A stretch of DNA of 56,175 bases from Bdellovibrionales bacterium (lineage in GTDB: Bacteria; Pseudomonadota; Alphaproteobacteria; Micavibrionales; JBBKXB01): positions 1 to 56,175 of the forward strand of contig JBBKXB010000066.1 in assembly GCA_037969255.1 (NCBI GenBank), given 5' to 3'. Shown here piece by piece: positions 19,494-55,638 of the stretch. Under the pieces are notes generated by a model. That model searched no databases, was not told the origin of the DNA, and saw nothing but the letters and a program-made list of their open reading frames with translations. The position numbers were made by a program, and so were the translations under genes. Within the stretch, counting starts at the first letter, position 1, and each line of letters starts with the position of its first letter.

Positions 19494-20507
19494 ATGTCAC
19501 GCACGTCATGTCTTGCTCTTATTCCCGCGCTTCTATTGGGATTATTCTTCTACAGCCCTGATTCGTACGCTCAAGGTGGGCCCGTTAACAATAACCCTGT
19601 GGTTGAGCAAGGTGAGTCTGAGGTTACTGCCCCGCCAAGCGAGGCCACACCACTTGATAATAGTGTCGAACAGGCCGAGGCTGTACGCGCTGTCCAAGAA
19701 GCCGTAGCGATTGCAAAACAAAACGTAAAAGCCAACATTGTGGCTGTCGCGCCCGCATTACCGCCCACCATCCAAGCGCTCGTAAACAGTGGCGCACGCG
19801 TTGAATATCTTGGTCGTCATCAAGAATTTGATGGCTGGATCATTCTTAATAATGGCGCACCGTCATACGTTTATATGAGCCCTGATGGCAAATCTATTTT
19901 CCGCGGATTCCTTTTTGATGATCAAGGCAACGCCGTTACGTTGACCCAAGTGGCCGAGGCGCAAATCCGTAACCCTGAGTTTTTTGGTATCGACCCTGAC
20001 ACGATTGAGTCTGCTGTTGAAAAAGATGTGGCGCGCGGCGCTGGTAAAACGCTTTATGATGCATTGTCCGTGAGCAATTACTTTACCATGGGTGATCCAA
20101 GTGACACCGCGCGGGTTTTATATATATTCGTTGATCCTGATTGTCCGCATTGTAAGCGATTCATTCGTGACGCATATCCGAAATATCTTGAGAACAATCA
20201 AATTCAACTGCGTGTAATCCCAATAGGTATTTTAACCGATGAGTCGGCGGCGCGAGCTGCTACGCTTTTGGAAAGCCAAGACCCTGCGACACTCATGCGC
20301 GATCATGCGTTTGATACGGCTAAAATTGAAGCCGATAATACGCTTTCTCTTGAGGCGCAAAGTTTAAATGTAAATCTCTTTACACTATGGCAATTTGGTG
20401 GCACACCGATACTTGTGTTCAAAGATAAGCAAGGCGAAATTCAAATGGTTCGGGGCACACCTAATGATTTGGACGCCACTATAAATCTGATTGGTAATGG
20501 ATCATAA
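19494..20507 (+). CDS. DsbC/DsbG-like thiol:disulfide isomerase (IncI TrbB-like)
   Basis: Start ATG 19494 (SD AAGGA) gives a signal peptide ending SYAQ. C-terminal thioredoxin fold with VDPDCPHCKRF. First gene of the 20-kb co-directional T4SS/pilus block. Confidence 0.7.
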   Translation: MSRTSCLALIPALLLGLFFYSPDSYAQGGPVNNNPVVEQGESEVTAPPSEATPLDNSVEQAEAVRAVQEAVAIAKQNVKANIVAVAPALPPTIQALVNSGARVEYLGRHQEFDGWIILNNGAPSYVYMSPDGKSIFRGFLFDDQGNAVTLTQVAEAQIRNPEFFGIDPDTIESAVEKDVARGAGKTLYDALSVSNYFTMGDPSDTARVLYIFVDPDCPHCKRFIRDAYPKYLENNQIQLRVIPIGILTDESAARAATLLESQDPATLMRDHAFDTAKIEADNTLSLEAQSLNVNLFTLWQFGGTPILVFKDKQGEIQMVRGTPNDLDATINLIGNGS

Positions 20508-20516
20508 GATAATCAT

Positions 20517-21455
20517 ATGAGTGAAGTTTTAAAACGAGCTAAATTAATGGCGCGCATTGCGCCCTCCTTGCTCTCCGCGATCTTGCATAATCATAATGAC
20601 ATTGATGATGCGCAAATCCTCGGTCAGCATTTTTCCAAAGACATTAATCATATGCTCCCACTCGCGCAAATTTTGGTCGACGCGCTCAAGCCTGAAACCG
20701 AGGAAGAGCACAACGATATCAATGCGCTTGTGGCACCCGTGGCCGCGCAGTTATTGGCGCGTAATTACGGATTGTTTAGCTCTGATGAACCGGGCGATAT
20801 TGTACGATTGCTAAAACCTTCTATTAATGTCCTTGTGTCTTATTGCGACAAAATGGCGAGCGATCCTATTTTCAATGACATGCGCAACCCTGTGTCGCGC
20901 GGCCTTATTGCCTTTGCACCAGTGACCGCCTGTTTGACGCGCTATGCATTTGGCAAAAGCCCTGCCTCTCGCCTCACCAGTATTTTAGACGCATTTTCTC
21001 GCAAACAGGACGAGTTGCGCGGGTTATTACCTGACGAATTAAAACAGGATCCACATATGCGTTTTGGTATCCAAGATGCGGCGGCACAATTATTTGTAGC
21101 CCATTTTGAAAACACGCTCCAAGAAATGGACGATGATGACAACGCCAATGATGTGTTCAAAGTCCTTTTGCAAAACTGGCAGGAAAGCTTGTCTTTGTTT
21201 AATGTATTGGTAGCACACGCGGCATTTGGTGATGATGCGGGCGACAAAATGATGAAACCTAGAAAAGGTAAAAAATCTAACGCCAAACCAGAATCAGCCA
21301 AACCGGATTCAAAAGTTCGCGCCCTAAAAACTAAAGCTAAAGACGACGATGATGATGACGAAGAAGAACAAGGTGGTGGATCTGGCGGCGGTAAATCTCC
21401 AAAAGTTTCCAATCCGAATCCCATGTCATTTTTCGCCAATAAAAAAGGTATGTAA
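20517..21455 (+). CDS. hypothetical protein with acidic/Gly-rich C-terminal tail
   Basis: 312 aa, no signal peptide or TM. The tail is KTKAKDDDDDDEEEQGGGSGGGKSPKVSNPNPMSFFANKKGM. No family recognised. Confidence 0.5.
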   Translation: MSEVLKRAKLMARIAPSLLSAILHNHNDIDDAQILGQHFSKDINHMLPLAQILVDALKPETEEEHNDINALVAPVAAQLLARNYGLFSSDEPGDIVRLLKPSINVLVSYCDKMASDPIFNDMRNPVSRGLIAFAPVTACLTRYAFGKSPASRLTSILDAFSRKQDELRGLLPDELKQDPHMRFGIQDAAAQLFVAHFENTLQEMDDDDNANDVFKVLLQNWQESLSLFNVLVAHAAFGDDAGDKMMKPRKGKKSNAKPESAKPDSKVRALKTKAKDDDDDDEEEQGGGSGGGKSPKVSNPNPMSFFANKKGM

Positions 21456-21459
21456 TTAA

Positions 21460-21906
21460 ATGGCACTTACACAAACACTGGCATCATGTCTCATGCTTGC
21501 GGCTCATAATTACCAAGTACCCGCAGCGGTGCTTGTTGGAATTTATCGTGTTGAGGGTGGTAAAGTAGGACAACAGGTTGGCAATAAAAATGGCTCTTAT
21601 GATCTTGGGCCTATGCAGATTAATACGATTTGGATGAAAGAATTGGCGGGGCACTGGAACGTGCCAGAAAGCACAGCGCAACGCCTTGTCCGTGATGATG
21701 CTTGTACCAATATGGGTGTGGCGGCTTGGATTTTGCGTCAGCATCTCCAAGAAACAAAATCACTTTCACAGGCCATTGCACATTACCATTCACGCACACC
21801 ATTTAGAGGGCAATCATACCGTCAAAAAGTGCTCACAGCGATGAAACGTGATGGATTATTGACAGACACAAATCAAGCGTCGCGCACAAAAGTGGCTGAA
21901 CGATAA
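21460..21906 (+). CDS. lytic transglycosylase (SLT domain; VirB1/TrbN/R64 PilT-like)
   Basis: 148 aa. The catalytic-Glu block IYRVEGGKVG and YDLGPMQIN are typical of T4SS-associated transglycosylases. Confidence 0.8.
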   Translation: MALTQTLASCLMLAAHNYQVPAAVLVGIYRVEGGKVGQQVGNKNGSYDLGPMQINTIWMKELAGHWNVPESTAQRLVRDDACTNMGVAAWILRQHLQETKSLSQAIAHYHSRTPFRGQSYRQKVLTAMKRDGLLTDTNQASRTKVAER

Positions 21907-21987
21907 ACAAATAGGACTAAAAGGTAGATTTTTTATCCAATCTGTTTTAAAGATGGAAAGATCAAACAAGGATTAAAAATTTTGGGT

Positions 21988-22515
21988 ATGTTTAATAATA
22001 ATTTAAAGAATTTTGCTGTCATCGCCGTTACGGTTTTGGCCATTTCAGCCTGTCAGCCTCATTTAAAACGTGAGGATCCGCAAGTTGTGGTCTCGCCTGA
22101 TCGTACAGATTTAATGTTAGCGGATGCCGCCACGCGCGCGACAAAAGCGCTCGAATCGCTAGCATCCCTAGAACAAGCCAAGAACCCAAATGCGGGTGAT
22201 ATTGCGCTTCCCAATGCGCCCGTTGAGCTTCGCCGTTCAATAACGCTCAATTGGAATGGTCCTGTTGAACCCGTGGCACGTCTTTTGGCAGATCGTGCAG
22301 GTTATAAATTCCAAGCCATTGGTTCGCCGCCACCCGTTGGACTTTTGGTTCAAGTTGATGCTCGCGCCGAGCAAGTTGTATCTGTGCTGCGCTCCATCGG
22401 TCTTCAAATGGGCAATCGCGCGATTTTAAAAGTGAACCCCAATACGCGCGTCATCGAAATTCAATATGCACCAGCCAGCGCTGTGAATGTGACCAGCGAT
22501 AACGGGGTGCAATAA
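21988..22515 (+). CDS. dotD: T4BSS outer-membrane lipoprotein DotD (TraH-like)
   Basis: Lipobox LAISAC. The C-terminal N0/secretin-like domain sequence (LNWNGPVEPVARLLADRAGYKFQAIG...) resembles DotD. Position upstream of dotC-dotB. Confidence 0.7.
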   Translation: MFNNNLKNFAVIAVTVLAISACQPHLKREDPQVVVSPDRTDLMLADAATRATKALESLASLEQAKNPNAGDIALPNAPVELRRSITLNWNGPVEPVARLLADRAGYKFQAIGSPPPVGLLVQVDARAEQVVSVLRSIGLQMGNRAILKVNPNTRVIEIQYAPASAVNVTSDNGVQ

Positions 22516-22516: not shown

Positions 22517-23407
22517 ATGCGGTTGATACGGCTTACCTTATCAATATGTGTTCTCACTGTTTTATCAGTGCCTGTTTTTGCCGCCACTGAAAATACGCCC
22601 CGCTATGAATTGGGTGATCTCAATGAGCGTCAATCGCTTTATGCCAACAGACCTATTTTACTAAAAGACCTCCAAGAAATTCAAGCGCCAAAGGGCGCGT
22701 TATTATCCAAACAAGATCCAGAAAAACTTGAGCCTCGTGCTCGCGAGCTACGCGAAAATGCCATCCGTGAAGCGGCGTTTTCCTATGGCGCAAGGGGCGC
22801 TCTTGGTGCGCGCACATGGGAAATTCGTCAGACATTATTGCAAAAAGAAAAATACCTTGATAAGGTTTATAACTTCCGCGAGCTTTTGATTCCAACGGGA
22901 TCAGGATTATTGATCGAACCACCCATTATTGGCGAGTCTCTTGAAAATTTAAAAGTTGAAAGCGATGGCCAACAAGCCGCTGTGGCCGATCGCATCTATA
23001 ATATTGGACGCGACGCAAAGATCGTCACCGCCCCGCGTAACTGGCGTGTGTACCTTGAGCGCGAATGGGGCAATTTAGAGCTTCCCCCAGCAGAACTTAT
23101 TCCTGCCAGTAATAAAGAGCGTTTGTTATGGCGTGGCTGGATCAAAGAAGGTTATGAGCAAGGTATTGGACAAGCGGACGCTGTTTTCCGCGCCGATCTT
23201 GACCGCCTCACAGCGGATTATAAAGGCATGATTCGTTATCGTGAATTATTGGCCAAAGGCATTGTGTCCGAACCCTACGCGCTTCAAATTGATCGCGGTG
23301 TTACGGGCGGGGGCAAAGAGCTTCGTATCGGCGATCGTCAACTCACCATTTCAGGGCCATCTGAGTTAAAACCAGATGCATCGCAATGGAATCCCGTAAA
23401 CCAGTAA
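22517..23407 (+). CDS. dotC: T4BSS core protein DotC (TraI-like)
   Basis: 296 aa with a signal peptide. The size and the position between dotD and dotB match DotC/TraI. Sequence recognition alone is weak. Confidence 0.6.
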   Translation: MRLIRLTLSICVLTVLSVPVFAATENTPRYELGDLNERQSLYANRPILLKDLQEIQAPKGALLSKQDPEKLEPRARELRENAIREAAFSYGARGALGARTWEIRQTLLQKEKYLDKVYNFRELLIPTGSGLLIEPPIIGESLENLKVESDGQQAAVADRIYNIGRDAKIVTAPRNWRVYLEREWGNLELPPAELIPASNKERLLWRGWIKEGYEQGIGQADAVFRADLDRLTADYKGMIRYRELLAKGIVSEPYALQIDRGVTGGGKELRIGDRQLTISGPSELKPDASQWNPVNQ

Positions 23408-24540
23408 GCCTGCTCAAAGCAGGCGATCAACTCGGGGGCACATGGCCTGATGAACCGAACCGCTTTGCCGTTGAACAAATTGATCCGTTTTTAACGTGGT
23501 GCGTGACACGCGGCGCGAGTGACATTTCCATTCAATCTGACCGTCCCGTTTACAACGACATTCATGGGCGTTTATATCCCGCCACTGTACGAAGCTTGGA
23601 TAGCGCCGACATGGCGATTTTCCTCCATCAAATATATGGCCCTGATGCGCTCGCCCGCCTTGCGAGTGGAATAGATTTAGACCTTTCTTACGAAATTCGC
23701 CCTGATCGTTACACGCGCCTGAGGTTTCGTGTGAACATCACACCCATTCAATCCAAAGGACGTGACGCCGCGCAAATCACTATGCGTTCTTTGCCGTCTT
23801 CCCCGCCCGCCATTCATGAACTTGGTATCGAGGATGAAATCATTGAAAACTGGGCACCGCGCCAAGGCATGGTGCTGGTCACAGGCCCAACAGGTTCTGG
23901 TAAATCGACATTATTGGCCTCTGGTATTCGTATGCTTTTGGAGCGCCGTCAGGGGTGCGGTAAAGTGCTCACTTACGAGGCACCGATTGAATTTACTTAC
24001 GATGAAATTAAATCACCACATTCTCTCGTGAGCCAAACCGAAATTCCCCGTCACTTGCCGACTTTTGCTCATGGCGTTCGTAATGCCTTGCGCCGTAAAC
24101 CCAATATTATTCTTGTCGGTGAGGCACGCGATAGAGAGACAATTAATGCCGCCATCGAGGCAGCACAGACGGGACATGCTGTCTATGCCACAACGCATAC
24201 AATGGGCGTGTCCGCCACCATTCGCCGTCTTGTTTCGGCTTTTGATAGTGAAGAGCGCTCGGAACGCGCCTATGCGCTAATGGAATCGCTTCGTATGATT
24301 GTCACTCAAGCGCTTGTCCCGCGTGTGGGTGGTGGGCGTATTGGTGTACGCGAATGGATGCTGTTTGATGATGTGGTGCGCGAAAAGCTTTTGGAAATGG
24401 ATTTCCAAGACTGGTCAACCGAAATACAGCGCATGATCCCCAATTACGGACAAACCATCAATGAAAGCGCTGGCAAAGTGTTTGAAGCTGGCCTTATTGA
24501 TCGCCGTGCTTACCTCACTCTCACAGGAGGAGGTAGTTAA
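23386..24540 (+). CDS. dotB: T4BSS ATPase DotB (TraJ/PilT-like hexameric ATPase)
   Basis: 384 aa. Walker A GPTGSGKST, Walker B/Asp box ILVGEARD, His box VYATTHT. 22-nt overlap with dotC. Confidence 0.85.
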   Translation: MESRKPVSLLKAGDQLGGTWPDEPNRFAVEQIDPFLTWCVTRGASDISIQSDRPVYNDIHGRLYPATVRSLDSADMAIFLHQIYGPDALARLASGIDLDLSYEIRPDRYTRLRFRVNITPIQSKGRDAAQITMRSLPSSPPAIHELGIEDEIIENWAPRQGMVLVTGPTGSGKSTLLASGIRMLLERRQGCGKVLTYEAPIEFTYDEIKSPHSLVSQTEIPRHLPTFAHGVRNALRRKPNIILVGEARDRETINAAIEAAQTGHAVYATTHTMGVSATIRRLVSAFDSEERSERAYALMESLRMIVTQALVPRVGGGRIGVREWMLFDDVVREKLLEMDFQDWSTEIQRMIPNYGQTINESAGKVFEAGLIDRRAYLTLTGGGS

Positions 24541-24542: not shown

Positions 24543-25226
24543 ATGACTGAGATTAAAAAGGTCTATAATCAAGATTGGACACCCAAATACATCCATTATG
24601 TAGCGGTTGTTTTGATGATGAGCATGCTTGCAAACCAATTCACGGCACTTAAATTTATTGATGTGTTTGGTTTTTCAATGATCGCATCATACCTAACCTA
24701 CCCAATATCCTTAGTTGTGTGTGATGTATTATCAGAAGTTTACGGCTTCAGACGGACGCGAAAATTACTGTATGTTTGCATGGCTTTATACGCACTTAAC
24801 GTTGCGCTCGTACAAATGGTCATTCATTTGCCGCCCGCGGCGGACTATCAAAATAATGAAATGTTTTCATCTTTATTTGGGCAATTACCACGCATTGTTT
24901 TTGCGGGTATCTTGGGTTACGCAACAGGTGAATTGCTTAATTCATACGTAATGTCACGCGTTAAGCACTGGACAGATGGTAAACATTTCTTTTTCCGCGC
25001 TTTGTTTTCTACAGGCATCTCGCAAATCTTAAATTGCATCATATTTTTTGGTATTGGTTTTTGGGGCATCATGCCAGTCTCAGCCATCCTAGAAAATGTT
25101 GCAATCGGTGTCTTTATTATTTTAGGATATGAGGCTCTAGTGCTTCCATTAACCATGCAAATTTGCAAATGGCTTAAAGCTAAAGAAGGCGTTGACCATT
25201 TCGATTTACCTAAAAAATCTGCATGA
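24543..25226 (+). CDS. yhhQ: queuosine-precursor transporter (YhhQ/VUT family)
   Basis: 227 aa polytopic protein. YPISLVVCDVLSEVYG and FFFRALFSTGISQILNCIIF blocks resemble YhhQ. SD GGAGGAGG lies inside the dotB 3' end, with a 2-nt gap. Confidence 0.72.
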   Translation: MTEIKKVYNQDWTPKYIHYVAVVLMMSMLANQFTALKFIDVFGFSMIASYLTYPISLVVCDVLSEVYGFRRTRKLLYVCMALYALNVALVQMVIHLPPAADYQNNEMFSSLFGQLPRIVFAGILGYATGELLNSYVMSRVKHWTDGKHFFFRALFSTGISQILNCIIFFGIGFWGIMPVSAILENVAIGVFIILGYEALVLPLTMQICKWLKAKEGVDHFDLPKKSA

Positions 25227-25295: not shown

Positions 25296-25592
25296 ATGTC
25301 CTTAGAAGTTGTCACCTCCGAAGAATTTCACTGGCGCAATTCCATGCGCCCCGTGCGCTTTTTCGCGTTTGATGCCAAAGTCGTGGTTTTTTTAGGGCTA
25401 TTTATGGTGCATGCACGTCTTTGGACGTTTGTACTGTTTGTGCTCATGATGTTTTTGTTTTGGTTTTTGGAACGCCGTGGATTGTTGTTTAACGCCGCGC
25501 TCCGTGCCTTTAGAACTTGGTTATACGGGGCGCATCGACCTGGTTGGTTATGGTTTAGAAAACGTAAAATGATCGATTATGGCGGTTATTAA
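25296..25592 (+). CDS. icmT: T4BSS inner-membrane protein IcmT (TraK-like)
   Basis: 98 aa. WRNSMRPVRFFAFDAKVVVFL...HARLWTFVLFV matches the IcmT/TraK signature as I recall it. Confidence 0.75.
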   Translation: MSLEVVTSEEFHWRNSMRPVRFFAFDAKVVVFLGLFMVHARLWTFVLFVLMMFLFWFLERRGLLFNAALRAFRTWLYGAHRPGWLWFRKRKMIDYGGY

Positions 25593-25720
25593 TCTATAAA
25601 CCTGTTTTTATCCTTCTTTAGTGGCTTGTGATCCTGCATTTATTTCGGTAAACTTTGGTCACGAATAACAACAATGCCTTGATAACAAGGCTTATTTTGA
25701 TGAATTTATGGATGGGTCAC

Positions 25721-26752
25721 ATGTCTAAGAAGTTACTTTTCACTCTATTGCCAGTCTTGATGCTCAGTGGCACGGCGCACGCTGCCTTTGAGTGGGTGCC
25801 AACAACGCAACCTGCAACCAGCAACGCGCCTTCGATGCCATTGAACACAAATGACTTTGTGCCATTGCCTGATAAACAACCTGTGATATCAGAGTCATTA
25901 CCTGTTCCTGCTGCGCCCACGCCAATGGCAACCACAATGCCAGAACAAATGGCGATGTCGGCTGTGCCAGCAACTGCGCCTTCAATCGCTTGGAATCCAA
26001 AGCCAGAAATGGCCGCGCCTGTTGCGATGCCCCCAAAAGCACCGATGGTGATGAATGATAATCCGCAAGGTTTTGTTGAAGGGTTTGGCCGTGATATTCC
26101 CTTATCCATCGCCACCGCACAAATCGTTCCTACAGATTACGCTGTTCAATATGGCATTGGCGCAAGCCCTGATGTTCTTGTGAACTGGCAAGGGGGGCGT
26201 GATTGGAAAGCCGCCCTTACTGAGGCTGTAGCCGCGCAAAACATGACCGCCAACATTTCAGGTCAAACCGTTATTATTGAATCAAATTTACCCGTTTATG
26301 TCGCGCCATCACCTATGTTGCCACAACCAGTCCCTACCGTTGAGGCGGCGGCTGTTGCCATTCAAACAGAAACTATGCCTCCCATGGAACAACGTAGTGA
26401 TAATCAATATGCCGCGATGGATAATATGATGTTTTCACCGCTCGCACCTGTCGCCAATGACGCCAATTCTAATTTAAACAAGTCTGTTATGTGGGTCGCC
26501 CCGCGCGCCTCGACACTGCGCCAAGTGCTTACAGATTGGGCACGTGAGGCTGGTGTGCAATTACAATGGTCGGCGCAATATGATTACCCTTTAATGTCTG
26601 ATGTTCAAATCTCAGGCACATTTGAAGACGCCGTTGAAAATATTTTGGCTGGACTCGTTGATGCTCAGCCCCGCCCTGTGGCGCGCCTTCACCCTAATGA
26701 ACCAAGCGGTCCCGCTATTCTTGTCGTTGAAACCCGTTACATAATGGAGTAA
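25721..26752 (+). CDS. pilL: type IVb pilus protein PilL-like (TcpQ-type C-terminal domain)
   Basis: Start ATG 25721 gives signal peptide MSKKLLFTLLPVLMLSGTAHA. Pro/Ala/Met-rich linker. The C-terminal block WVAPRASTLRQVLTDWAREAGVQLQW...ISGTFEDAVENIL is typical of TcpQ/PilL. First gene of the pil order. Confidence 0.55.
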   Translation: MSKKLLFTLLPVLMLSGTAHAAFEWVPTTQPATSNAPSMPLNTNDFVPLPDKQPVISESLPVPAAPTPMATTMPEQMAMSAVPATAPSIAWNPKPEMAAPVAMPPKAPMVMNDNPQGFVEGFGRDIPLSIATAQIVPTDYAVQYGIGASPDVLVNWQGGRDWKAALTEAVAAQNMTANISGQTVIIESNLPVYVAPSPMLPQPVPTVEAAAVAIQTETMPPMEQRSDNQYAAMDNMMFSPLAPVANDANSNLNKSVMWVAPRASTLRQVLTDWAREAGVQLQWSAQYDYPLMSDVQISGTFEDAVENILAGLVDAQPRPVARLHPNEPSGPAILVVETRYIME

Positions 26753-29725: not shown

Positions 29726-29738
29726 GGTAAGAGGTCTT

Positions 29739-30329
29739 ATGATGAACACTATGACGAATGTAGTTACCACAGGGTTTTTAAAGGGATTGTTCTCAATCTT
29801 ATTGGTGACTTCTGTGCTCAATCCAGCGCTCGCGCAAGACAATGATGATTGGACGTTATGCCCTGAACCTGGTGCTGCGCTCCAAGATGTGCCCGCTGGC
29901 CCTGCTGAAATTCAAGCTGACATTGACCGTTTTACGTTGTGTCTTGATCGCGCAGAACTTCTTCTCAAGCTTGAGGAAGTCAGTAATCGTAATGATGAGC
30001 TCTTGATGGGTGCTTCAGGTATGGGTGGCATGGTGTTGCCTGTGAACCCTACACCGCTTACACAAGCACAAACCGAGGAATTAATGGCCTCCAATGATCC
30101 AAATATGATGGGCGCGTTACCGCCGATAAAAATGGCTGATTACACTATCCTTGGTATAAGTGGTGCGGGGGGTGCACTTGATGCACGCCTCAATACGCCC
30201 GATGGTGATATTCAAATGGTGCGCATTGATGATCATTTAGAAGACGGCTCCGTGGTGAGCTCAATATCCGCGTCTCAAGTTTTCGTACGCAAAGATGGTA
30301 AAACAAGACTTCTACAGTGGGATAATTAA
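29739..30329 (+). CDS. pilP: type IVb pilus biogenesis protein PilP-like
   Basis: 196 aa with a signal peptide. The C-terminal small beta domain (YTILGISGAGGALDARLNTPDGDIQMVRIDDHLEDGSVV) is PilP/GspC-HR-like. Position between pilO and pilQ. Confidence 0.5.
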   Translation: MMNTMTNVVTTGFLKGLFSILLVTSVLNPALAQDNDDWTLCPEPGAALQDVPAGPAEIQADIDRFTLCLDRAELLLKLEEVSNRNDELLMGASGMGGMVLPVNPTPLTQAQTEELMASNDPNMMGALPPIKMADYTILGISGAGGALDARLNTPDGDIQMVRIDDHLEDGSVVSSISASQVFVRKDGKTRLLQWDN

Positions 30330-42741: not shown

Positions 42742-42753
42742 GAATCAATTTAA

Positions 42754-45403: not shown

Positions 45404-45486
45404 TGCGGTTATGATGCCATCAATAAAAGGTCATTTTTCTCTTAATTATAATTGGTATATATAAAGTGCGTGTGTTACATAAAAAT

Positions 45487-46569: not shown

Positions 46570-46579
46570 AAAAGAAGAT

Positions 46580-47914: not shown

Positions 47915-47929
47915 AAAGGGAGCTATAAA

Positions 47930-49162
47930 ATGGCTGACAATATGAATGATGACATAGACAACCAAGTTGATGATCTAGATTTTTCTGATCTTGATTTGGG
48001 TGATGAGTCCTTTGAAAGTGGTGATTTTGATGATGGTGACACGAATAGTGAAGTCACATCTGAGAAAAAAGATTACACCTCATATATTGTATATGGGTTA
48101 ACAGGGCTTGTGGTCTTGGGTATTGCCGCATGGCAACTGGATTTATTTGGCAGTAGCACACCGGAACCATTCCGCGCTGATGACGTGCCTATGAATGATC
48201 AAATGAACAATCAATCTGCTGACCTTTTGCCTGGATCCAATGATCCTTTTAATGTGCTTGGCACTCCTGATCAACTTCCTACACAACAAACAGCGCAAGA
48301 CGATTCTAACAATCCATTGATCTTTGATGCTATGCAACCTGCTGATAGTATGTCGTCCGATACGTTATCTGATGAGGACGCTATGGCTATGGCGAATGAA
48401 CAAAGCGCAGATTTCATCCCTGCACAGAACAACCCCACGCCTACTTTAGAGGGCGACACGCTGCCAATGCCACAACAGCCCGATGTTCTTCTTACTGATA
48501 CAGCCACGCCTACCCCTGCAGAGGCTATGGTTGACGCCCCTGATACTAACAATGAAACGGCTTTTGTTGCCGAACCAACCATTGAAACTGAAAAACCTCT
48601 TCCTACAGCAACGCCTTCAAAAACCGCTAGTATAGGAAACAGTGATGTGAATGCGATCATGACAACACTTGATGCCATCACAAAACGTCTCGATACAATT
48701 GAAACGCGCCTTGAAAACACTGATAACACACCAGCACCAAGCAAAGATATTAATGACTTGCAAAAAGCGATGGTGGCTTTGGAATCTAAACTTAAGACTG
48801 TTGAGAAAAAGGCCGAAGATAAACCTAAAGTGACCAACGCGCCTGCTCAAACGACAGTTTCTAAAAAAGCATCCGTTAAAAAAGCGTCCGTTAAAAAGAA
48901 AAGCACATCTAAGTGGGATCAACCCTACGATGGCGGCGCAATTTTGGATAAAACAACATCTGTTGCCAGCGCTACGACGACTTCAAGTGGTCTATACTCA
49001 TTGCGTGCAGCCCAACCTGGTAAAGGTTATATTGACGATGGGTCAGGCGCGATATTAGAGGTGCGTGTTGGTACAATCATACCAAATATGGGGCAAGTGA
49101 CCTCCATTTCAGACAATAATGGTCAATGGATGGTGATGACCACGCAAGGCGCTATAAAATAG
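47930..49162 (+). CDS. icmG: T4BSS protein in the IcmG/DotF (TraP) position
   Basis: 410 aa. Acidic N-terminus, one TM (IVYGLTGLVVLGIAAW), long P/T/A/D-rich linker, small C-terminal beta domain. The assignment is mainly positional. Confidence 0.45.
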   Translation: MADNMNDDIDNQVDDLDFSDLDLGDESFESGDFDDGDTNSEVTSEKKDYTSYIVYGLTGLVVLGIAAWQLDLFGSSTPEPFRADDVPMNDQMNNQSADLLPGSNDPFNVLGTPDQLPTQQTAQDDSNNPLIFDAMQPADSMSSDTLSDEDAMAMANEQSADFIPAQNNPTPTLEGDTLPMPQQPDVLLTDTATPTPAEAMVDAPDTNNETAFVAEPTIETEKPLPTATPSKTASIGNSDVNAIMTTLDAITKRLDTIETRLENTDNTPAPSKDINDLQKAMVALESKLKTVEKKAEDKPKVTNAPAQTTVSKKASVKKASVKKKSTSKWDQPYDGGAILDKTTSVASATTTSSGLYSLRAAQPGKGYIDDGSGAILEVRVGTIIPNMGQVTSISDNNGQWMVMTTQGAIK

Positions 49163-49280: not shown

Positions 49281-50897
49281 ATGAAAAAAATAAAAAATAA
49301 AATTTTTGTAACATGTGGCGCTATATGCGTTTTGGCTGCGATAGGTTTCGGCCTCGCTACGCCTGTGCACGCTCAAAGCGCAAGTTCTTATAAAACAGAA
49401 GTGTCTGTACAGCCCGTCAATAAGGCTGGTGTGTCTCCTGATTCTGATCCACAACAAGATGCCGTTGATGCGCGCCGCGAAGCCCAACAAGATGCCGTTA
49501 CAACACGTCAAGGCCTTATAGCCGTTGACCGCGCTGTGCGCAGTGACCAGATTCAAACTGATCAAGAAAACGCGTATGATGATTATGTTGACCGCGCCTT
49601 TGAACGTGATGTGGTTAAAATCTTAAATAATTCACTTAATCGCGCCGTTGTTGATGCGATCCAAAATGAAGATCGCCGTTACAGCATTGAACAACGAAAT
49701 CAAGCGTATGACGAACAATATGATCGTAATTATGAGCGCGATCAAAAAGCCAACAAAGATAATAGAGACCGCGTGCAAGATCTATTGCAACTCCAAGATA
49801 CTCGTGAGGCCACACGCCTTATTAAGCGTGACCAAGCGGTTGAAACCTTTAAGAAAAAGCAGGCTGCGGATATTAAAAAAGCTCAAGATGCTCGTAATGC
49901 AAATTCTCGCACAGGTGAACGCCAAGCGAAAATTGACAAACGTAATGCAAATGGCACAGCGACGATGGCGAGCTATGATTCAAGCGAAGCCCAAACTCTT
50001 GGCGATATGATTGTGAATTTTGGCGGTAATATGACGCGCCTTCCATCACTATTTTATATCTTCTCTTATGTATCAGGTGCGTTTTTGATGGCGATGGGGC
50101 TTCTTAAAGCCAACAAAGCCACCATGAATCCACAACAAAATCCTGTGAGCAATGCGATCAAGTACATGTTTGCGGGTGTGGCCATGACCGTTCTACCTGC
50201 AACAGTAACAATATTGAAAAACAGCCTTGGTCTTGAACGCTCTACATGGGGTATCGATTATTCGAAAGGTCTCAATGGCGGTGCTCAACAAGCTGGAGAA
50301 GGCGCTGAAGCGGTCGAAAAAGCCGCTGAAACCGCTGCGGGAGGCCTCGATCAATTCTTTGTGACATTGATGCGCGATATTGGCGAGCCGATGTTCCTCG
50401 TGATCAATTTATTTGGTCTTGTGGCTGGTGTATTCTTAATCGCCAATGCCTTACAACGCCTCACCAAAGGCGCGCAAGAAGGCGCGAAAGGTCCCGCTGG
50501 GATTGGTACCATTATGAATTTTGTGGTGGGCGCGGCTCTTATTTCGCTCGTGCCATCAATGAAAGTATTCACTGTTAGCCTCTTTGGTAACTCAAATGTC
50601 GTCACGTTCCCTGACATGTCAACAATTGCTAATCAAATCGGCACAACGGAAGCCTCTATGGCACAGGTCACAGCCGTGATTACATCCTTACTAGGCTTTC
50701 TCGCCATTGTTGGCGCAATCAGTTTCGTCCGCGGACTCTTTATGCTTAAAGATGTGTCCGACGGCGCCCAGAATGCTTCCTTTATGGGAAGTATATCCCA
50801 CCTCGTAGCGGGTGTGTTATGTGTGAACTTTGGAGCATTTTTAAACGTGTTCCAAAACACTTTAAACCTTAACGAATATGGGATACTATTTAAATAA
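49281..50897 (+). CDS. polytopic membrane protein in the icmC/dotE (traQ) position with a long charged N-terminal domain
   Basis: 538 aa. Signal/anchor sequence, about 200 aa of D/E/R/K/Q-rich predicted helix (residues ~35-240), then about six TM segments. The assignment to IcmC is positional only. Confidence 0.35.
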   Translation: MKKIKNKIFVTCGAICVLAAIGFGLATPVHAQSASSYKTEVSVQPVNKAGVSPDSDPQQDAVDARREAQQDAVTTRQGLIAVDRAVRSDQIQTDQENAYDDYVDRAFERDVVKILNNSLNRAVVDAIQNEDRRYSIEQRNQAYDEQYDRNYERDQKANKDNRDRVQDLLQLQDTREATRLIKRDQAVETFKKKQAADIKKAQDARNANSRTGERQAKIDKRNANGTATMASYDSSEAQTLGDMIVNFGGNMTRLPSLFYIFSYVSGAFLMAMGLLKANKATMNPQQNPVSNAIKYMFAGVAMTVLPATVTILKNSLGLERSTWGIDYSKGLNGGAQQAGEGAEAVEKAAETAAGGLDQFFVTLMRDIGEPMFLVINLFGLVAGVFLIANALQRLTKGAQEGAKGPAGIGTIMNFVVGAALISLVPSMKVFTVSLFGNSNVVTFPDMSTIANQIGTTEASMAQVTAVITSLLGFLAIVGAISFVRGLFMLKDVSDGAQNASFMGSISHLVAGVLCVNFGAFLNVFQNTLNLNEYGILFK

Positions 50898-50921
50898 AGC
50901 TAAGGAGGAGGAATAAATCTT

Positions 50922-51317
50922 ATGCTTAAAAAACTAAATCTACTAGGTGCGCGTCTTTCGGCGGTAGTCATGAGCACAACTATACTTATGACAGCTGGTC
51001 AAGCGCTTGCTCAATCTGACGTTAATGACGTTATTGTCCAATCAGGTAGCAACTTGAAAAACGTTGGTGACCTTGTGAATATTGCCGCTTATGGTGGTGG
51101 TGCTGTTCTTACAGCCACAGGTTTGCTGAACTTGAAAAAACATGCGAGCAACCCATCACAAAATTCTTTGCGTGATGCTGTTGGTCCTGCTGTTGTTGGT
51201 GTTGCCCTATTGGCCTTCCCGTCAGCCGCTGGTATTTTGACAGATTCAACATTTGGCGAAACAAGCACAAATCCAGGTTACACAAACAACGCGTTTGACG
51301 CTAACTTCGGAGGCTAA
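50922..51317 (+). CDS. icmD: T4BSS small membrane protein IcmD/DotP (TraR-like)
   Basis: 131 aa with a signal peptide plus two Gly/Ala-rich TM helices. Size and position match IcmD. Confidence 0.5.
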   Translation: MLKKLNLLGARLSAVVMSTTILMTAGQALAQSDVNDVIVQSGSNLKNVGDLVNIAAYGGGAVLTATGLLNLKKHASNPSQNSLRDAVGPAVVGVALLAFPSAAGILTDSTFGETSTNPGYTNNAFDANFGG

Positions 51318-51325
51318 TATTAGCC

Positions 51326-52015
51326 ATGACACTCAGCGTATTATCGAGCGAAGATCGCGAGACATTAGCTGAACTGTCACAATTCGATGGTTTCATCGGA
51401 TTTAAACAATCGGTACAAGAGCGCGATGAACACTCATGCGCGCTCTGTTCTTTTCAGGCGAAAAAATATCAAGAAATTGCGCTTAAGCCTGATGTTCCTA
51501 TTAGCAAAGCGATTAATATGGACAGCGATGACTGGCAAACCATTTGCCAATTTTGTTTACAAACCAGAGATATCACCATTGCTTCTGATATGGAATCGGG
51601 CGTTATGCTATGGCTTCCTGAAATATCACAAAATGATTTAAATAACTTAGCACGGGCTATCTATGTGGCGCGTGTATCCCAAGGCCCTATGGCTGATGCC
51701 GCGCGTAAAATCATGGAAAGCCTTATGCAACGCCGTGAAGTGGCCAAAGCACGCCTTGGCACAGATGATGTGACCATGCTTAAAAATGTGCTCAATGATT
51801 TCCTTGAGGAACGCCATATCAAGGCCATTCCTGATAAACTTGATGGTGTGCGGCTATTCCCACTGGATCGCCGTATGATGAAAGAAGGCGGCGTTGATTT
51901 CAATCAATTCCCACAAATTCTAGCCTATTGGCGCTCTAAAGAAGGTCCATTTGGTGGCAAGCTTCCTGGCACATGGATTGAGAACTACATTAAGTACGCG
52001 GACAAAGCGGCTTAA
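51326..52015 (+). CDS. icmJ: T4BSS cytoplasmic Zn-binding protein IcmJ/DotN (TraT-like)
   Basis: 229 aa, soluble, with two CxxC pairs (CALCSF, CQFCLQ). Position just upstream of icmB. Confidence 0.6.
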   Translation: MTLSVLSSEDRETLAELSQFDGFIGFKQSVQERDEHSCALCSFQAKKYQEIALKPDVPISKAINMDSDDWQTICQFCLQTRDITIASDMESGVMLWLPEISQNDLNNLARAIYVARVSQGPMADAARKIMESLMQRREVAKARLGTDDVTMLKNVLNDFLEERHIKAIPDKLDGVRLFPLDRRMMKEGGVDFNQFPQILAYWRSKEGPFGGKLPGTWIENYIKYADKAA

Positions 52016-52083: not shown

Positions 52084-55000
52084 ATGGGTTTTTTCTCATC
52101 CTTTATGACACCGTTTGTAAAATCGGCGCGTTACCCGCTTGAAAGCTTTATCAGGCTTGAAACGGCGGACGATTCAACAACGCTTGTTGCCGAAGACGGT
52201 TCACTTGTCACACTGATTCGCGTGGACGGTTCACGTATCCTTATTGGTGACGAAGAATACAGATATATTATTGAGGCCGCGACCACCAAAATTGGGTCAC
52301 GCTTCGATCAACCTGGTTATGCGATGCAGTTTTTCTTCTCTCGCGACCCAGCGCGTGCCAAAGAACAAATTGATGATTTGGTGCAACCAAGCCGTGCCTC
52401 CGTTGAGGCTATGGATCTCGATCTTGATGATTTGATGCGCGAACGCACGCGCCATCTCTCGCATTATATCCTCAAAGAAGACTATTATGTCGTCTTGTGG
52501 ACGCGTCCATCAGTTCTAAATAAAAACGACATTGATCGTGCGGGTAAACAAGCTAAAAACCGCAAGTGGGTGGTCGCGCCTGATGCGCAATATCCTTTTG
52601 CCGCACTTGATCAATTGCGAACCCGTCATTCCTCATTCGTGAGTGGTATTTTAACCATGTTTGAAGATTTATCAATCAAGGCCGAAGAATTAGAAGTCCA
52701 TGATGCGCTCACATCCATTCGCAATGTGCTCCATCCTGATCTTGCAAACGATAAGTGGCGCGCTTGCGTGCCAGGTGATCCTATTCCACCCCGTGCACAA
52801 AAAACAGCGGGTGATCTCTCCGATATTTTATGGCCACCATTACGCCAGCAATTAACCGCCGCACATGCCGAAATTAAAAACGATCATATGGTGCGCATTG
52901 GGCGCAAACTCTGGTCGGGCTGTGATATGACGCTTGGGCCTATGGACCCATCACCATTTCCCGTGCTCATGAACCGCCTTTTTGAAGCGGGTGTACCGTT
53001 TCGTATATCGTTCCTTATTGAAGGCGGCGGGGTGCAAGGTTCCACGCTTAAAAGCTCTGTGGCCTCAGTACTGGCTGCCACAAACGCGCAAAACCGTTCG
53101 ATTAAAAATTCACTGACACAACTCCAAGCCTATGCCCGTGGGCAACCTGTTGTGCGCATGCGTATGTCGCTCGCCACATGGGCAAACGAAGGTGAAGAAG
53201 ACTTATTAGAAGATCGCCTTTCTACACTTATCCAATCCACCGAGGCATGGGGTTATACCCAAGTTTCCACCTTAATTGGTGACCCGCTTGATTGTGTGAT
53301 GAGTTCGGCGCTTGGGATTGCGTGTGCATCGACTGCGCCGCCAGCCGTGGCGCCTTTGGCCGAAGTGTTCAAACTTATTCCATGGCAACGCCCAAGCTCG
53401 CCCTTTGAGACAGGCTCTGTCATGCTCAGAACGCCTGATGGGAAGGTCTGGCCTTATGCCACAGGCTCTAGCTTAACCACCACGTGGTTCGATCTTATTT
53501 TCGCGCAACCGGGTGCAGGTAAATCTGTGTTGATGAACACGCTCAATCTTGGGACAATCTTGGGCCCTGGACAATCCAAATTGCCCTATGTGGCGGTGAT
53601 TGATATTGGCCCTTCAAGTGCAGGTCTTATTTCTATGATCAAAGAGGCACTTCCTGCCAATCGTAAACATGAGGCGGCGCATTATCGCTGGCAAATGAGC
53701 CCTCAATACGCGGTGAACCCATTTGATACGCAACTTGGGTGCCGTGAACCCTTAATGGATGAACGCGCTTATTTGATTGAGTTGATGATCCTTTTAACAA
53801 CACCCCCAGGGCAAGATCGCCCTTATGACGGGATGCAGCAACTCGCTGGTTTGGTGGTTGATGAAATGTTCCGCTGGCGTGCGGATGGGAATGCCAATGC
53901 CGAACCGCGCCCCTATTTACCGCGCCTTGACAGCGATATTGATGAAGCCTTATCAAAACATAATATTCATTTGCCCACCGATCCATACTGGTGGGATGTG
54001 GTTGATAAATTCTTTGATCTTGAGGAATATCATCTTGCCAATCTGGCACAACGTCACGCGGTGCCCGTGCTTGGTGATGCCATCACAGCCGCCCGTCGTC
54101 CTCAAATTCGCTCACTTCTAGAGGACACACAAATTGGCAATAGCTCAGAAAATGTTATCAATGCGTTTGAACGTATGATCACTTCGGCCATTCGTGAATA
54201 TCCAATTTTATCCGCCGTCACAAGATTTGATATCGCTGGCGCGCGCGTGTGTGCGCTTGATTTGATGGATGTATCACCACAAGGGGACGAATCCGCAGAT
54301 CGTCAAACCGCGATTATGTACATGTTGGCGCGTCACTGTTTGATCCGTAGCTGGTGGGTGAATACGGACAGTCTACGCCAAATCCCTGAAAAATATCAGA
54401 TGTATCACGAACTTCGTATGCGCGATATTTCTGAAACCCCCAAACGTCTTTGCTATGATGAATTTCATCGCACATCCAAATCTAAATCTGTGCGTAATCA
54501 GATTATTCGTGACGTACGAGAAGGTCGTAAACGCGGCGTACAAATTGTTTTATCCTCACAATTATTGGATGATTTTGACAAAGACATGGTCGATTTGGCC
54601 ACAGGTGTTTGGATTTTGGGTACGGCCATCTCTGATAATGCGGTGGACGCCGCCCAAGACCGCTTTGGCCTTTCCAACACAGGGCGCAACATCATTCGTT
54701 ATCGCCTCACGGGACCCCGTTCTGGTGGTGCGCCGTGTCTATTCGTGCTCGGTTCTAATGAGGGTCGCTACGAACAACATCTTATCAACACGCTGGGCCC
54801 CATTGAATTATGGGCGCTCTCTACATCCACCGAAGATGTCGCCATTCGTGATCGCCTTTATGCCAGATTGGGCGCACGCCGCGCCCGTCAAATGCTCGCT
54901 GCCAGTTTCCCTGGTGGATCAGCACGACCAGAGATTAAACGCCGCGTGATGTCGCGCTCTGAAAAAGGTGAAATTCACGCCGCCGCCACATCCGAAGTGA

Positions 55001-55137
55001 TCAAAGAAATTGTCGAGGAAATCGTGGCCGCATCCGAACGTCAAGCCCATGCCGCCGCGAATATTGGTGCGCCTCCTGAACCCGTTCCAGCCCCCATTAA
55101 AAAACCAAGCTTCAAAAAAGAAGCCGATGAAGAGTGA
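52084..55137 (+). CDS. icmB: T4BSS ATPase IcmB/DotO (TraU; VirB4-like)
   Basis: 1017 aa. Walker A QPGAGKSV, Walker B-like LCYDEFHR. Size and position match IcmB. Confidence 0.85.
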   Translation: MGFFSSFMTPFVKSARYPLESFIRLETADDSTTLVAEDGSLVTLIRVDGSRILIGDEEYRYIIEAATTKIGSRFDQPGYAMQFFFSRDPARAKEQIDDLVQPSRASVEAMDLDLDDLMRERTRHLSHYILKEDYYVVLWTRPSVLNKNDIDRAGKQAKNRKWVVAPDAQYPFAALDQLRTRHSSFVSGILTMFEDLSIKAEELEVHDALTSIRNVLHPDLANDKWRACVPGDPIPPRAQKTAGDLSDILWPPLRQQLTAAHAEIKNDHMVRIGRKLWSGCDMTLGPMDPSPFPVLMNRLFEAGVPFRISFLIEGGGVQGSTLKSSVASVLAATNAQNRSIKNSLTQLQAYARGQPVVRMRMSLATWANEGEEDLLEDRLSTLIQSTEAWGYTQVSTLIGDPLDCVMSSALGIACASTAPPAVAPLAEVFKLIPWQRPSSPFETGSVMLRTPDGKVWPYATGSSLTTTWFDLIFAQPGAGKSVLMNTLNLGTILGPGQSKLPYVAVIDIGPSSAGLISMIKEALPANRKHEAAHYRWQMSPQYAVNPFDTQLGCREPLMDERAYLIELMILLTTPPGQDRPYDGMQQLAGLVVDEMFRWRADGNANAEPRPYLPRLDSDIDEALSKHNIHLPTDPYWWDVVDKFFDLEEYHLANLAQRHAVPVLGDAITAARRPQIRSLLEDTQIGNSSENVINAFERMITSAIREYPILSAVTRFDIAGARVCALDLMDVSPQGDESADRQTAIMYMLARHCLIRSWWVNTDSLRQIPEKYQMYHELRMRDISETPKRLCYDEFHRTSKSKSVRNQIIRDVREGRKRGVQIVLSSQLLDDFDKDMVDLATGVWILGTAISDNAVDAAQDRFGLSNTGRNIIRYRLTGPRSGGAPCLFVLGSNEGRYEQHLINTLGPIELWALSTSTEDVAIRDRLYARLGARRARQMLAASFPGGSARPEIKRRVMSRSEKGEIHAAATSEVIKEIVEEIVAASERQAHAAANIGAPPEPVPAPIKKPSFKKEADEE

Positions 55138-55149
55138 TGGTGCTTAACC

Positions 55150-55638
55150 ATGGTGGATGATAATCAAAATGCGGTTAAACCATCTCCATTTTTCACATGG
55201 CTCAATAAGAATGGCTGGGTGATTTGGGTCGTATTTTTATTGATCGCTGTCGGGATTGGGTATGCGATTTATAACGCTCAAAAGCCCAAACAAGGCGGCA
55301 CTTTATATGGTGTATGCAAAACGCTCATGGATTTTGAATATCAATACCCATTCACGTTTGATATTTTGAGTGTGAGCGAAGGTCGCCGCGATGTGCGTAT
55401 TTTTATGGCTGAAACCAACAGTTTTGGTCAAGAACGCATCATCCAAGTCGATTGTGATTTTTCTATGAACAATAATAAACTATTGCTCGCGCGTCTCACG
55501 CTTGATCGCAAAGCCGTGCCCGATGAAAAAATTGAGTATTATAATCGCATCGTACCAACGCTCGCATCCATGAGTGACACGCTGAACCGTGACCTCCCCA
55601 AACCATTACCAAAATCATTACAAGAATTAAAACGTTAA
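55150..55638 (+). CDS. hypothetical single-pass membrane protein (traV position)
   Basis: 162 aa with one TM (WVIWVVFLLIAVGIGYAIY). Follows icmB after a 12-nt gap. No family recognised. Confidence 0.45.
   Translation: MVDDNQNAVKPSPFFTWLNKNGWVIWVVFLLIAVGIGYAIYNAQKPKQGGTLYGVCKTLMDFEYQYPFTFDILSVSEGRRDVRIFMAETNSFGQERIIQVDCDFSMNNNKLLLARLTLDRKAVPDEKIEYYNRIVPTLASMSDTLNRDLPKPLPKSLQELKR

Follow-up and report, generated by a model that had tools for sequence, protein, structure and literature searches.

The 56,175-bp contig JBBKXB010000066.1 (assembly GCA_037969255.1) is part of a metagenome-assembled genome (MAG), and the whole of it was analysed here (the window), so that a gene described below as absent from the window is absent from the contig. 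It carries the genes of a Dot/Icm-family type IVb secretion system (T4BSS) as two runs, and between them the genes of a type IVb thin pilus. Six-frame open reading frames (ORFs) were searched against Pfam, for all main ORFs of the window, and against NCBIfam, for those of the T4BSS and pilus regions. A preliminary description had named the genes from the raw sequence, and these profile searches agree with its list almost item by item, placing the ORFs in the Dot/Icm/Tra and Pil families. The central observation is that a dsb-SLT-dotDCB-icmT operon runs directly into a pil gene set of the IncI/R64 type. For comparison, DNA loci were fetched around the homologues found in relatives (L001-L028; the related loci total about 0.4 Mb). 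Genes are on the + strand unless stated otherwise.

The first run opens with a gene for a DsbG/DsbC-like periplasmic thiol-disulfide isomerase (19419..20507; NF008657, 130 bits with a cut-off of 124; Thioredoxin_2, 31 bits), the first gene of the dot operon, whose likely true start at 19494 lies directly before the signal peptide. The protein shows a weak BLASTP match to TrbB of the IncI1 plasmid ColIb-P9 (ColIb) near the CXXC region and is predicted to be the functional counterpart of IncI TrbB; the gene keeps this position in L005, L006, L008 and L011-L013. A conserved 312-aa protein with no signal peptide (20517..21455) always stands between dsb and SLT, and its homologues fill that slot in 8 relatives. 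It matches no Pfam or NCBIfam family, hhalign found no similarity of its family to TraF, and its single-sequence AlphaFold2 model (pLDDT 41.7) was discarded. The SLT lytic transglycosylase that follows (21460..21906; TrbN/PilT-like; PF01464, 26 bits; TrbN model, 95 bits) is 60-74% identical in relatives and would open the peptidoglycan for assembly of the machine. Next come the outer-membrane lipoprotein DotD/TraH (21982..22515; PF16816, 108 bits; NF033882, 99 bits; lipobox ISAC), the core-complex lipoprotein DotC/TraI (22517..23407; PF16932, 242 bits; Protein Data Bank (PDB) L. pneumophila DotC, 133 bits; ColIb TraI, 30% identity, E 1e-31) and the hexameric ATPase DotB/TraJ (23386..24540; TIGR02524, 392 bits; PDB 6geb, 367 bits). 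The run closes with IcmT/TraK, a small inner-membrane protein with two transmembrane segments (25296..25592; NF038220, 73.5 bits, cut-off 40).

One gene of this run is foreign to the machine. The Vut_1/YhhQ-family transporter gene between dotB and icmT (24543..25226; PF02592, 129 bits) is missing from that slot in all relatives examined and is a window-specific passenger. Elsewhere the slot holds a PNPOx-like ORF (L011, 8033-8503), small unrelated ORFs or nothing; this position inside the dot operon accepts passenger genes. The members of the Vut_1/YhhQ family are queuosine-precursor-type transporters.

Downstream of icmT the pil string begins with a gene for a TcpQ-domain protein resembling PilL, either a lipoprotein or periplasmic (25655..26752; PF10671, 50 bits; weak match to ColIb PilL), whose true start is likely near 25721, where a Met precedes a signal peptide. 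The icmT-pilL spacer (25593-25720) contains a hairpin with a 6-bp stem and a T-run (25676-25701), upstream of this probable start. The secretin PilN (26760..28346) matches TIGR02520 with 194 bits and ColIb PilN with 26% identity (E 1e-31). The assembly proteins PilO and PilP (28364..30329) match PF06864 with 58 bits and, weakly for PilP, TIGR03021 with 26 bits. They are followed by the assembly ATPase PilQ (30336..31895; T2SSE, 234 bits; ColIb PilQ, 32% identity, E 7e-65) and the GspF-family platform protein PilR (31902..32960; T2SSF, 76 bits; ColIb PilR, 29%, E 1e-42). Two tandem genes encode PilS-type major pilins (32947..34182; N_methyl and weak Bundlin and PilS matches) with the prepilin motif G|FTLLE. 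Their N-terminal halves are near-identical (a 217-nt direct repeat, 75% identity) and their C-terminal halves divergent; most relatives have a single pilin gene where the window has two.

The distal part of the string encodes three large pilin-like proteins (34349..38620), one of 519 aa, a PilV-like protein of 467 aa and, also full-length, another PilV paralogue with roughly 450 aa. The PilV-like protein matches Shufflon_N (34.5 bits, cut-off 27.5) and N_methyl and is 24% identical to ColIb PilV over 428 aa; the two paralogues align over 468 aa. The three large proteins are 26-40% identical in relatives, compared with 67-79% for PilQ, and are the fastest-evolving part of the module. All three are candidate tip adhesins. 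Two or three separate PilV-like genes stand in place of a shufflon: there are no multi-copy inverted repeats within 32.9-39.6 kb, and tblastn finds no Rci recombinase in the window or the related loci. The last gene of the string encodes a 317-aa signal-peptide protein (38596..39549) that matches no family in the profile searches and has a homologue after PilV in L023. In sum, an R64/IncI-type thin-pilus set of PilN, PilQ, PilR, PilO/PilP, PilL, PilS and PilV is present, with PilP weak. PilM, which had also been claimed, has no match in the profile or ColIb searches of the window. The window likewise has no A24 domain or PilU match that would mark a prepilin peptidase; the canonical G|F...E motif of the pilins would fit a housekeeping peptidase of the PilD type.

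The assignment of the first pil gene needs some care. A TcpQ-domain protein also follows IcmT in L005, L006, L008 and L009, which lack the remaining pil genes, and the protein beside IcmT may be a component of the T4BSS, in the position of TraL, instead of PilL. In L009, from a Kiloniella sp. MAG (NZ_CBDBHW010000001.1), an unbroken IncI-like string on a 420 kb contig, with proteins 31-44% identical to those of the window, runs DotD-C-B-IcmT, two TcpQ-domain genes, one uncharacterised gene, a Dsb-like gene and IcmL-K-E-TraQ...IcmB. As this locus shows, a gene with a TcpQ domain can be part of the T4BSS string itself.

An inverted block (39552..44442, - strand) separates the pilus genes from the second T4BSS run and contains flgL, flgK and the gene for a 548-aa protein with a Sec signal. 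FlgK is identified by FlgK_D1 (105 bits), FlgL by weak matches to the flagellin N- and C-terminal domains. The flgL-flgK adjacency is shared with L001, L005-L008, L023 and L024; these are flagellar housekeeping genes, and for the clade the placement of the block beside icmL is ancestral. Identity to the L001 counterpart is 25% for the 548-aa protein, whose single-sequence AlphaFold2 model was discarded (pLDDT 38.5).

The second run starts with IcmL/DotI, IcmK/DotH, IcmE/DotG and a protein in the position of IcmG/DotF (44624..49162), recognised by profile and PDB matches. IcmL/DotI matches PF11393 (196 bits), NF038072 (185.7 bits, above the equivalog cut-off of 175) and DotI in the PDB (97 bits). 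IcmK/DotH matches PF12293 (252 bits) and DotH in the PDB (137 bits), and IcmE/DotG has a TrbI domain (36 bits) and matches the DotG model (116 bits). The match of the IcmG/DotF-position protein is weak (E 3.5e-4). IcmC/DotE/TraQ-like, IcmD/DotP/TraR-like and IcmJ/DotN genes follow (49281..52015). The first (49281-50897) encodes a polytopic 538-aa protein whose C-terminal third matches IncI1 TraQ (35 bits); at three times the length of IncI TraQ it carries a signal peptide and, N-terminal to the TraQ-like membrane domain, an additional periplasmic domain of about 250 aa. The second, of 131 aa, aligns with IncI TraR by hhalign at E 7.7e-4 and a probability of 25%. Both the TraQ-like and the TraR-like assignments are weak and are based in part on position. 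IcmJ/DotN is found with 65 bits and matches DotN in the PDB (E 1e-11). The run ends with the VirB4-family ATPase IcmB/DotO and a conserved 162-aa membrane protein (52084..55638). IcmB has 1017 aa, matches ColIb TraU (BLASTP E 4e-95) and has more than 100 homologues that bear the IcmB name; a search of the PDB with its sequence gave no match. The 162-aa ORF is kept after IcmB in L001, L002, L023 and L025, and hhalign shows no similarity of its family to IncI TraV. The contig ends 0.5 kb past this gene, and the right flank lies outside the window.

We compared this arrangement with the annotated order of ColIb-P9/R64, pilI...pilV-rci-traE-F-G-H-I-J-K-(nuc, sog)-traL-M-N-O-P-Q-R-S-T-U-V-W-X-Y-excA...trbA-B-C-nikB-A. 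The two runs have the IncI1 order traH-I-J-K ... traM-N-O-P-Q-R-T-U, as had been proposed, and the BLASTP pairs agree. The likeness extends to the core-gene set, a DsbC-like TrbB, a lytic transglycosylase and pil genes beside the traE-K block, and in both cases unrelated genes interrupt the traK-traL-M junction. There are also clear differences. The window proteins are only 24-33% identical to those of ColIb; the pil genes lie downstream of icmT, whereas those of IncI1 lie upstream of traE; flgL-flgK stands at the junction; and the pilins have a short G|F leader. The window has no NikB, NikA/oriT, TrbA, TrbC, TraW/X, ExcA, shufflon/Rci or PilU, and the system is chromosomal and split into several loci in relatives.

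The preliminary description had presented the T4BSS as split open by a nested pilus. Pfam, NCBIfam and ColIb BLASTP confirm a type IVb pilus module in the interval from icmT to icmL. The novelty was overstated, however, because IncI1 also has pil beside traE-K, with nuc and sog at the traK-traL junction, and because the icmT-icmL junction is variable in relatives. It holds pil and flgLK in the window, L011/L001 and L023; the TcpQ gene and flgLK, with the other pil genes absent, in L005, L006 and L008; flgLK alone in L007; and four paralogous genes in L025. In L012/L027 the blocks are fully apart. Given this variation, the stable unit across the clade is the fusion of dotDCB-icmT to pil and not the whole 36-kb string.

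While the gene order is that of IncI1, the sequences are not, and in this respect the label "IncI-like" did not hold: DotB, IcmL and IcmE score nearer to Legionella Dot/Icm than to IncI1 Tra proteins. DotB scores 392 bits with the DotB equivalog model versus 257 with the TraJ model, and in the PDB 367 bits with L. pneumophila DotB versus 225 with Y. pseudotuberculosis DotB; its identity is 48% with L. pneumophila DotB and 33% with ColIb TraJ. IcmL scores 97 bits with DotI versus 36 with R64 TraM, and IcmE 116 bits with the DotG model versus 75 with the TraO model. A DotB phylogeny had been suggested, and in a neighbor-joining tree (363 columns, 1000 bootstraps) the clade of the window is recovered at 100% and grouped with Legionella and Yersinia at 79%, excluding ColIb TraJ and Kiloniella; as a distance tree of few taxa it is indicative only.

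The nearest matches of solved structure are likewise L. pneumophila proteins (DotB, DotI, DotH, DotC and DotN). Like the Legionella/Coxiella systems, the one described here is chromosomal, lies in several operons and is relaxase-less over the contig and the related loci, which corresponds to the TXSScan definition of pT4SSi. It differs from Legionella in its alphaproteobacterial host, in its IncI-like gene order and in that IcmS/W/Q/R, IcmF/DotU, IcmX, IcmV and DotK were not seen on the contig. To our knowledge, Legionellales Dot/Icm loci have no type IVb pilus, unlike the window. The best plasmid matches of IcmB/TraU, at 37-44%, are the MPF-I (mating-pair formation type I) systems of alphaproteobacterial megaplasmids (Bosea pBSY19_1, Methylorubrum extorquens AM1, Rhizobium), which differ in being plasmid-borne and in having a type IV coupling protein (T4CP; a TraM-recognition-domain protein) and a prepilin peptidase nearby. 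The pil genes can also be likened to the pilL-N-O-P-Q-R-S-T-V-M clusters of PAPI-1 and ICEclc, which encode an R64-related thin pilus for cell contact of a type IV secretion system (T4SS) and accompany an MPF-G conjugation system on a mobile integrative and conjugative element (ICE).

Relatives of the window allow us to address how the system is inherited. More than 1200 relatives of IcmB were found, and among these the best 120 share 66-95% identity with it, many of them on contigs of 0.2-2.4 Mb; after clustering at 50%, the group of IcmB is a single representative at 60% identity, and the next relative stands at 48%. Syntenic relatives have been deposited as "uncultured Micavibrio sp.", "Rhodospirillales bacterium" and "Alphaproteobacteria bacterium", and the source study of one relative describes a circular 2 Mbp Micavibrionales MAG. 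A scan of genome contigs for DotC only, made with narrow exact peptide patterns, returned 6 loci. The order BI-1(-), dsb-x-SLT-dotDCB-icmT-pilLNOPQRS-x-pilV-x is kept in the closest relative (L011/L001, IcmB 83% identical), in L012 on a 2.2 Mb contig and in L013 on a 920 kb contig; in the latter two, PilN is 41-47% and IcmB about 70% identical to the window. The full layout pilV-x-flgL(-)-flgK(-)-icmL...icmB-small ORF recurs in L023, an 865 kb JGI contig with IcmB at 63%. In the closest relative (L001), rpmH-rnpA-yidD-yidC directly follow the cluster. The 2.2 Mb genome (L012/L027) has icmC-D-J-B-small ORF at 63-86 kb, dot-pil at 113-135 kb and icmLKEG-dotA at 382-405 kb, three T4BSS operons up to about 300 kb apart and each embedded in housekeeping genes. 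The flanks of icmLKEG-dotA (icd, ykuD ... mlaC, mlaA, lptFG, pepA, holC) are identical in two genomes. Altogether, chromosomal context is shared across relatives with 62-86% identity, and the synteny with housekeeping flanks holds down to 62-71% IcmB identity.

Sequence divergence gives the same picture. Between the window and its closest relative the proportion of synonymous differences (pS) has reached saturation, at 0.76-0.88, equally in the T4BSS genes, the pil genes and the core genes of the flank, and that of nonsynonymous differences (pN) is 0.11-0.44 overall; we give pN and pS only, since synonymous saturation precludes dN/dS ratios. With pN values of 0.11, 0.13 and 0.15, DotB, IcmB and PilQ have diverged less than two core genes next to them, BI-1 and GT4 (0.19-0.22). 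Across genomes, dot, icm and pil genes share one rank order of divergence, and the ORFs are intact in every locus examined. The GC content of the window is flat at about 0.45, a tRNA search of the window found none, and no integrase matches in the window or the related loci. BI-1 borders the system on the left; on the right, core genes do so in the closest relative. A megablast search of plasmids with the icm half gave no match, and an Rfam search matched no family. The earlier reading of a domesticated system in an alphaproteobacterial chromosome is upheld by the conserved housekeeping synteny, the flat GC, the lack of mobility genes and the equal pS saturation: flat GC, no tRNA in the window, no integrase or relaxase in the window or the related loci, and conserved synteny point to an old domesticated system and make a recent ICE very unlikely. 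The data show that the system is chromosomally fixed, vertically inherited, co-inherited and under purifying selection in a Micavibrio-like clade.

As to completeness, the locus encodes a TraU/DotO-type VirB4 ATPase, the core proteins DotC, DotD, DotH and DotG, and DotI, IcmT and DotB, which score above or close to the curated cut-offs, together with the weakly matching DotE- and DotP-like proteins. DotA is off the contig and present in the clade (L014, 272 bits with TIGR04346), and DotA homologues share Mb-scale contigs with IcmB and PilN. The absences noted earlier hold for the window, in which tblastn finds no IncI TrbC/DotL, TrbA/DotM, TraY/DotA, NikB or Rci. In both the window and the related loci, tblastn with ColIb-P9 finds no relaxase NikB, TrbA, TrbC, TraW/X or PilU, and the Bosea plasmid coupling protein has no tblastn match either. 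Profile searches of the window proteins found no LvgA or IcmX, and no IcmV or DotK was seen on the contig. DotN is a subunit of the Legionella coupling complex, and its presence implies a DotL-DotM coupling complex encoded elsewhere. The sole positive sign of a DotL/IcmO gene is the "icmO" annotated as GMV_383 in M. aeruginosavorus ARL-13.

From these results we propose the following mechanism. The DsbG-like and SLT proteins would help periplasmic assembly; DotC, DotD, DotH, DotG and DotF would form the envelope-spanning core, and DotI, IcmT and the DotE- and DotP-like proteins the inner-membrane part. DotO and DotB would energise the machine, and a DotL-DotM-DotN coupling complex, encoded elsewhere, would feed the core. 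The thin pilus, with its fast-evolving PilV-type tips, would attach the cell to a target cell, and the T4BSS would then deliver proteins into the contacted cell; the system would no longer be a self-transmissible conjugation machine. IncI thin pili are known to stabilise mating pairs in liquid through PilV tip adhesins. We give pilus-mediated attachment followed by T4BSS protein delivery, a prediction made from gene content and comparison, a probability of roughly 0.6.

Several points weigh against this proposal. Neither DotL/IcmO nor DotM/IcmP turned up in the window or the roughly 0.4 Mb of related loci, Pfam and NCBIfam searches of the window proteins gave no IcmS/W/Q/R or IcmF/DotU, and no T4BSS substrate was identified. 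The operons referred to here are defined by gene spacing alone, promoter and terminator scans of the window were at chance level, and the weak hairpin in the icmT-pilL spacer could act, between the secretion and the pilus genes, as an attenuator or weak terminator. As far as we know, IncI-type thin pili have so far been recognised only as conjugation aids, which fits DNA transfer equally well. The placement in a Micavibrio-like clade, suggested by the depositors' labels of relatives and by the gene order of M. aeruginosavorus ARL-13, is provisional. For this predator, the only cultured relative, the published text states that nothing points to a type IV secretion system (PMC3189940), and the examined part of its gene table contains no PilN-, PilQ- or PilR-like annotation. 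ARL-13 thus preys without a reported T4SS, and the system is evidently dispensable for Micavibrio-type predation as such.

If proteins are delivered, the contacted cell could be eukaryotic. Legionella-like delivery of effectors into protists or other eukaryotic host cells, which is possible and which we hold only tentatively, would agree with the sequence affinity to Legionella Dot/Icm and with genomes of about 2 Mb, and elsewhere pT4SSi without a relaxase have been linked to bacteria that associate with eukaryotes (PMC9418006, PMC8896642, PMC11338181). On the other hand, no IcmS/W/Q/R was seen, the loci showed no proteins with eukaryotic-like domains beyond a sub-threshold MIT match, and no host association is documented for the clade. 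Nor do we know of any role of an IncI-type thin pilus in infection of eukaryotes.

Alternatively, the effectors could enter bacterial prey or hosts to which the pilus binds, as a device of epibiotic predation or parasitism. This we hold to be slightly less likely. The Micavibrio and Micavibrionales labels, a core gene order that mirrors that of the predator ARL-13, the rapid evolution of the PilV-like proteins and the flagellated, motile nature of the organism (flgKL, rpoN) all favour it, and IncI PilV adhesins bind bacterial lipopolysaccharide. Against it, ARL-13 preys without a recognised T4SS, the locus contains no toxin/immunity pair, and we know of no Dot/Icm-type system that targets bacteria. 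A more specific version, in which interchangeable PilV tips recognise the prey envelope and the T4BSS injects during epibiotic attachment, so that the Micavibrio-like clade aims a Dot/Icm-type machine at bacteria, is more speculative still. Were bacteria the target, it would be the first member of the Dot/Icm family to be directed against bacterial cells, and a living intermediate between IncI conjugation, in which a thin pilus brings bacterium and bacterium into contact, and Legionella-type effector delivery.

Transfer of DNA, with the system as a resident chromosomal apparatus that mobilises relaxase-bearing islands or chromosomal DNA in trans, we regard as unlikely, yet as a live rival reading. 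It is favoured by the IncI-like gene order and by a thin pilus with PilV, which in IncI serves mating-pair stabilisation in liquid. Relaxase-bearing islands without transfer machinery of their own do occur in M. aeruginosavorus, which has nine integrase-bearing islands with mobA/mobL relaxases and no recognised transfer machinery (PMC3189940; GMV_1250 in the part of the source examined). However, no relaxase or T4CP is linked to any of the loci, there is no shufflon or Rci, DotB and DotI group with effector-type systems, and a trait so deeply conserved by vertical descent in streamlined genomes of about 2 Mb would more typically serve a core function of the lifestyle.

A recently integrated IncI-like ICE, with relaxase, oriT, coupling protein and integrase just off the contig, would account for the gene order, the IncI-type thin pilus and a right flank outside the window, but is highly improbable given the rpmH, rnpA, yidD and yidC genes directly after the cluster in the closest relative, a BI-1 junction kept down to about 70% IcmB identity, blocks dispersed among housekeeping genes, flat GC, no tRNA or integrase, a best plasmid IcmB of 44% and no megablast match. 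Equally remote is the reading that an ancient element has left a remnant here, decaying or without function: several canonical components are off the contig, the blocks are scattered and L005, L006 and L008 have lost pil at the site, but the ORFs are intact, pN is far below pS, DotB, IcmB and PilQ are more conserved than their neighbours, and DotA is found on the same chromosomes.

The presence of a T4BSS in this order of bacteria is not new. A marine TXSScan survey (Needham et al. 2022, PMC9418006) reports pT4SSi that lack a relaxase in seven marine Micavibrionales genomes, in one sentence and a supplementary table (Supplementary Data 11), and its systems are probably the one described here. 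Both building blocks, their linkage in IncI and T4BSS in Micavibrionales are thus already known. Our literature search found no description of the gene order, pilus linkage, chromosomal synteny or function of the Micavibrionales pT4SSi, and only the pilus linkage and the chromosomal anatomy appear undescribed. In current reviews, T4BSS of the effector type count as characteristic of Legionellales and their gammaproteobacterial relatives (PMC8896642, PMC11338181); the T4BSS described here is an old core chromosomal trait of an entire clade of Alphaproteobacteria with streamlined genomes of about 2 Mb. With Legionella-nearer proteins, an IncI gene order and an IncI thin pilus, the system offers a handle on the conversion of conjugation machines to injectors. 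Should pilus attachment and protein delivery be its function, it would also inform what a thin pilus contributes to a protein-injecting machine, and, if the clade shares the predatory habit of Micavibrio, it would be a new contact-dependent weapon between bacteria. In practical terms, the dotDCB-icmT-pil string beside BI-1, like the icmLKEG-dotA operon, makes it easy to recognise and classify clade members in metagenomes.

The left flank consists of ordinary alphaproteobacterial core genes, as had been recognised from the sequence and as profile searches and the gene order of ARL-13 now show. It encodes LolA, RecR, a PleD-like regulator, an RNase D-like exonuclease, KdsD-LptC-LptA-LptB, RpoN-Hpf, UvrD-SurA-RsmA, a GT4 glycosyltransferase, a hydrolase and BI-1. 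The ARL-13 neighbourhood is alike, with GMV_71 (uvrD), 73 (PPIase), 74 (rsmA) and 78/79 (glycosyltransferases), and with GMV_156 (lptB), 158 (rpoN), 159 (hpf), 161 (response regulator), 163 (exonuclease), 164 (kpsF), 167 (ostA), 175 (recR) and 177 (lolA). The sub-threshold match to MIT, a eukaryotic domain (E 0.006, 17 bits), is the only one obtained for a 386-aa protein encoded between hpf and uvrD (10673-11833), and three small ORFs with no assigned function lie nearby (10121-10603, - strand; 11863-12129; 12151-12564).

In several relatives, Sec-signal proteins of 350-630 aa with Cys-rich N-termini are encoded as tandem sets of two to four paralogues between flgK (or icmT) and icmL (L005:17035-20656, L006:17799-20738, L007:15881-20015, L008:17073-20557, L025:4683-9773 and L023:7236-9586). 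The two subfamilies are homologous (hhalign 99.4%) and match no Pfam or NCBIfam family; an alignment with IncI TraW/IcmX is an insignificant motif match (E 0.015). For the 548-aa protein of the window, hhalign detected no relationship to TraW or to this tandem family.

The T4BSS blocks of the clade recurrently lie beside origin-proximal genes. dnaA abuts flgL-flgK-icmL in L024 (4863-6287), rpmH-rnpA-yidD-yidC follow icmB in L001 (18047-20606), and yidC lies between icmG and SLT in L004 (5572-7443). In ARL-13, the examined part of the gene table lists an "icmO" of 2583 bp (GMV_383; region GMV_376-385), seven genes from dnaA and expressed in both the attack and the attachment phase. The same part lists GMV_1708, a 2994-bp hypothetical gene of IcmB-like length in a flagellar region. 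ARL-13 may hold only a T4BSS remnant.

Finally, the gene adjoining dotA in L028 (12784-15099, - strand) encodes a 771-aa signal-less protein, rich in Ala, Asp and Glu and with an internal repeat. A homologue that is 28% identical over 229 aa lies beside dotA in a second genome (L014:11194-11871, - strand), and this neighbour of dotA is a possible substrate or accessory factor of the system.

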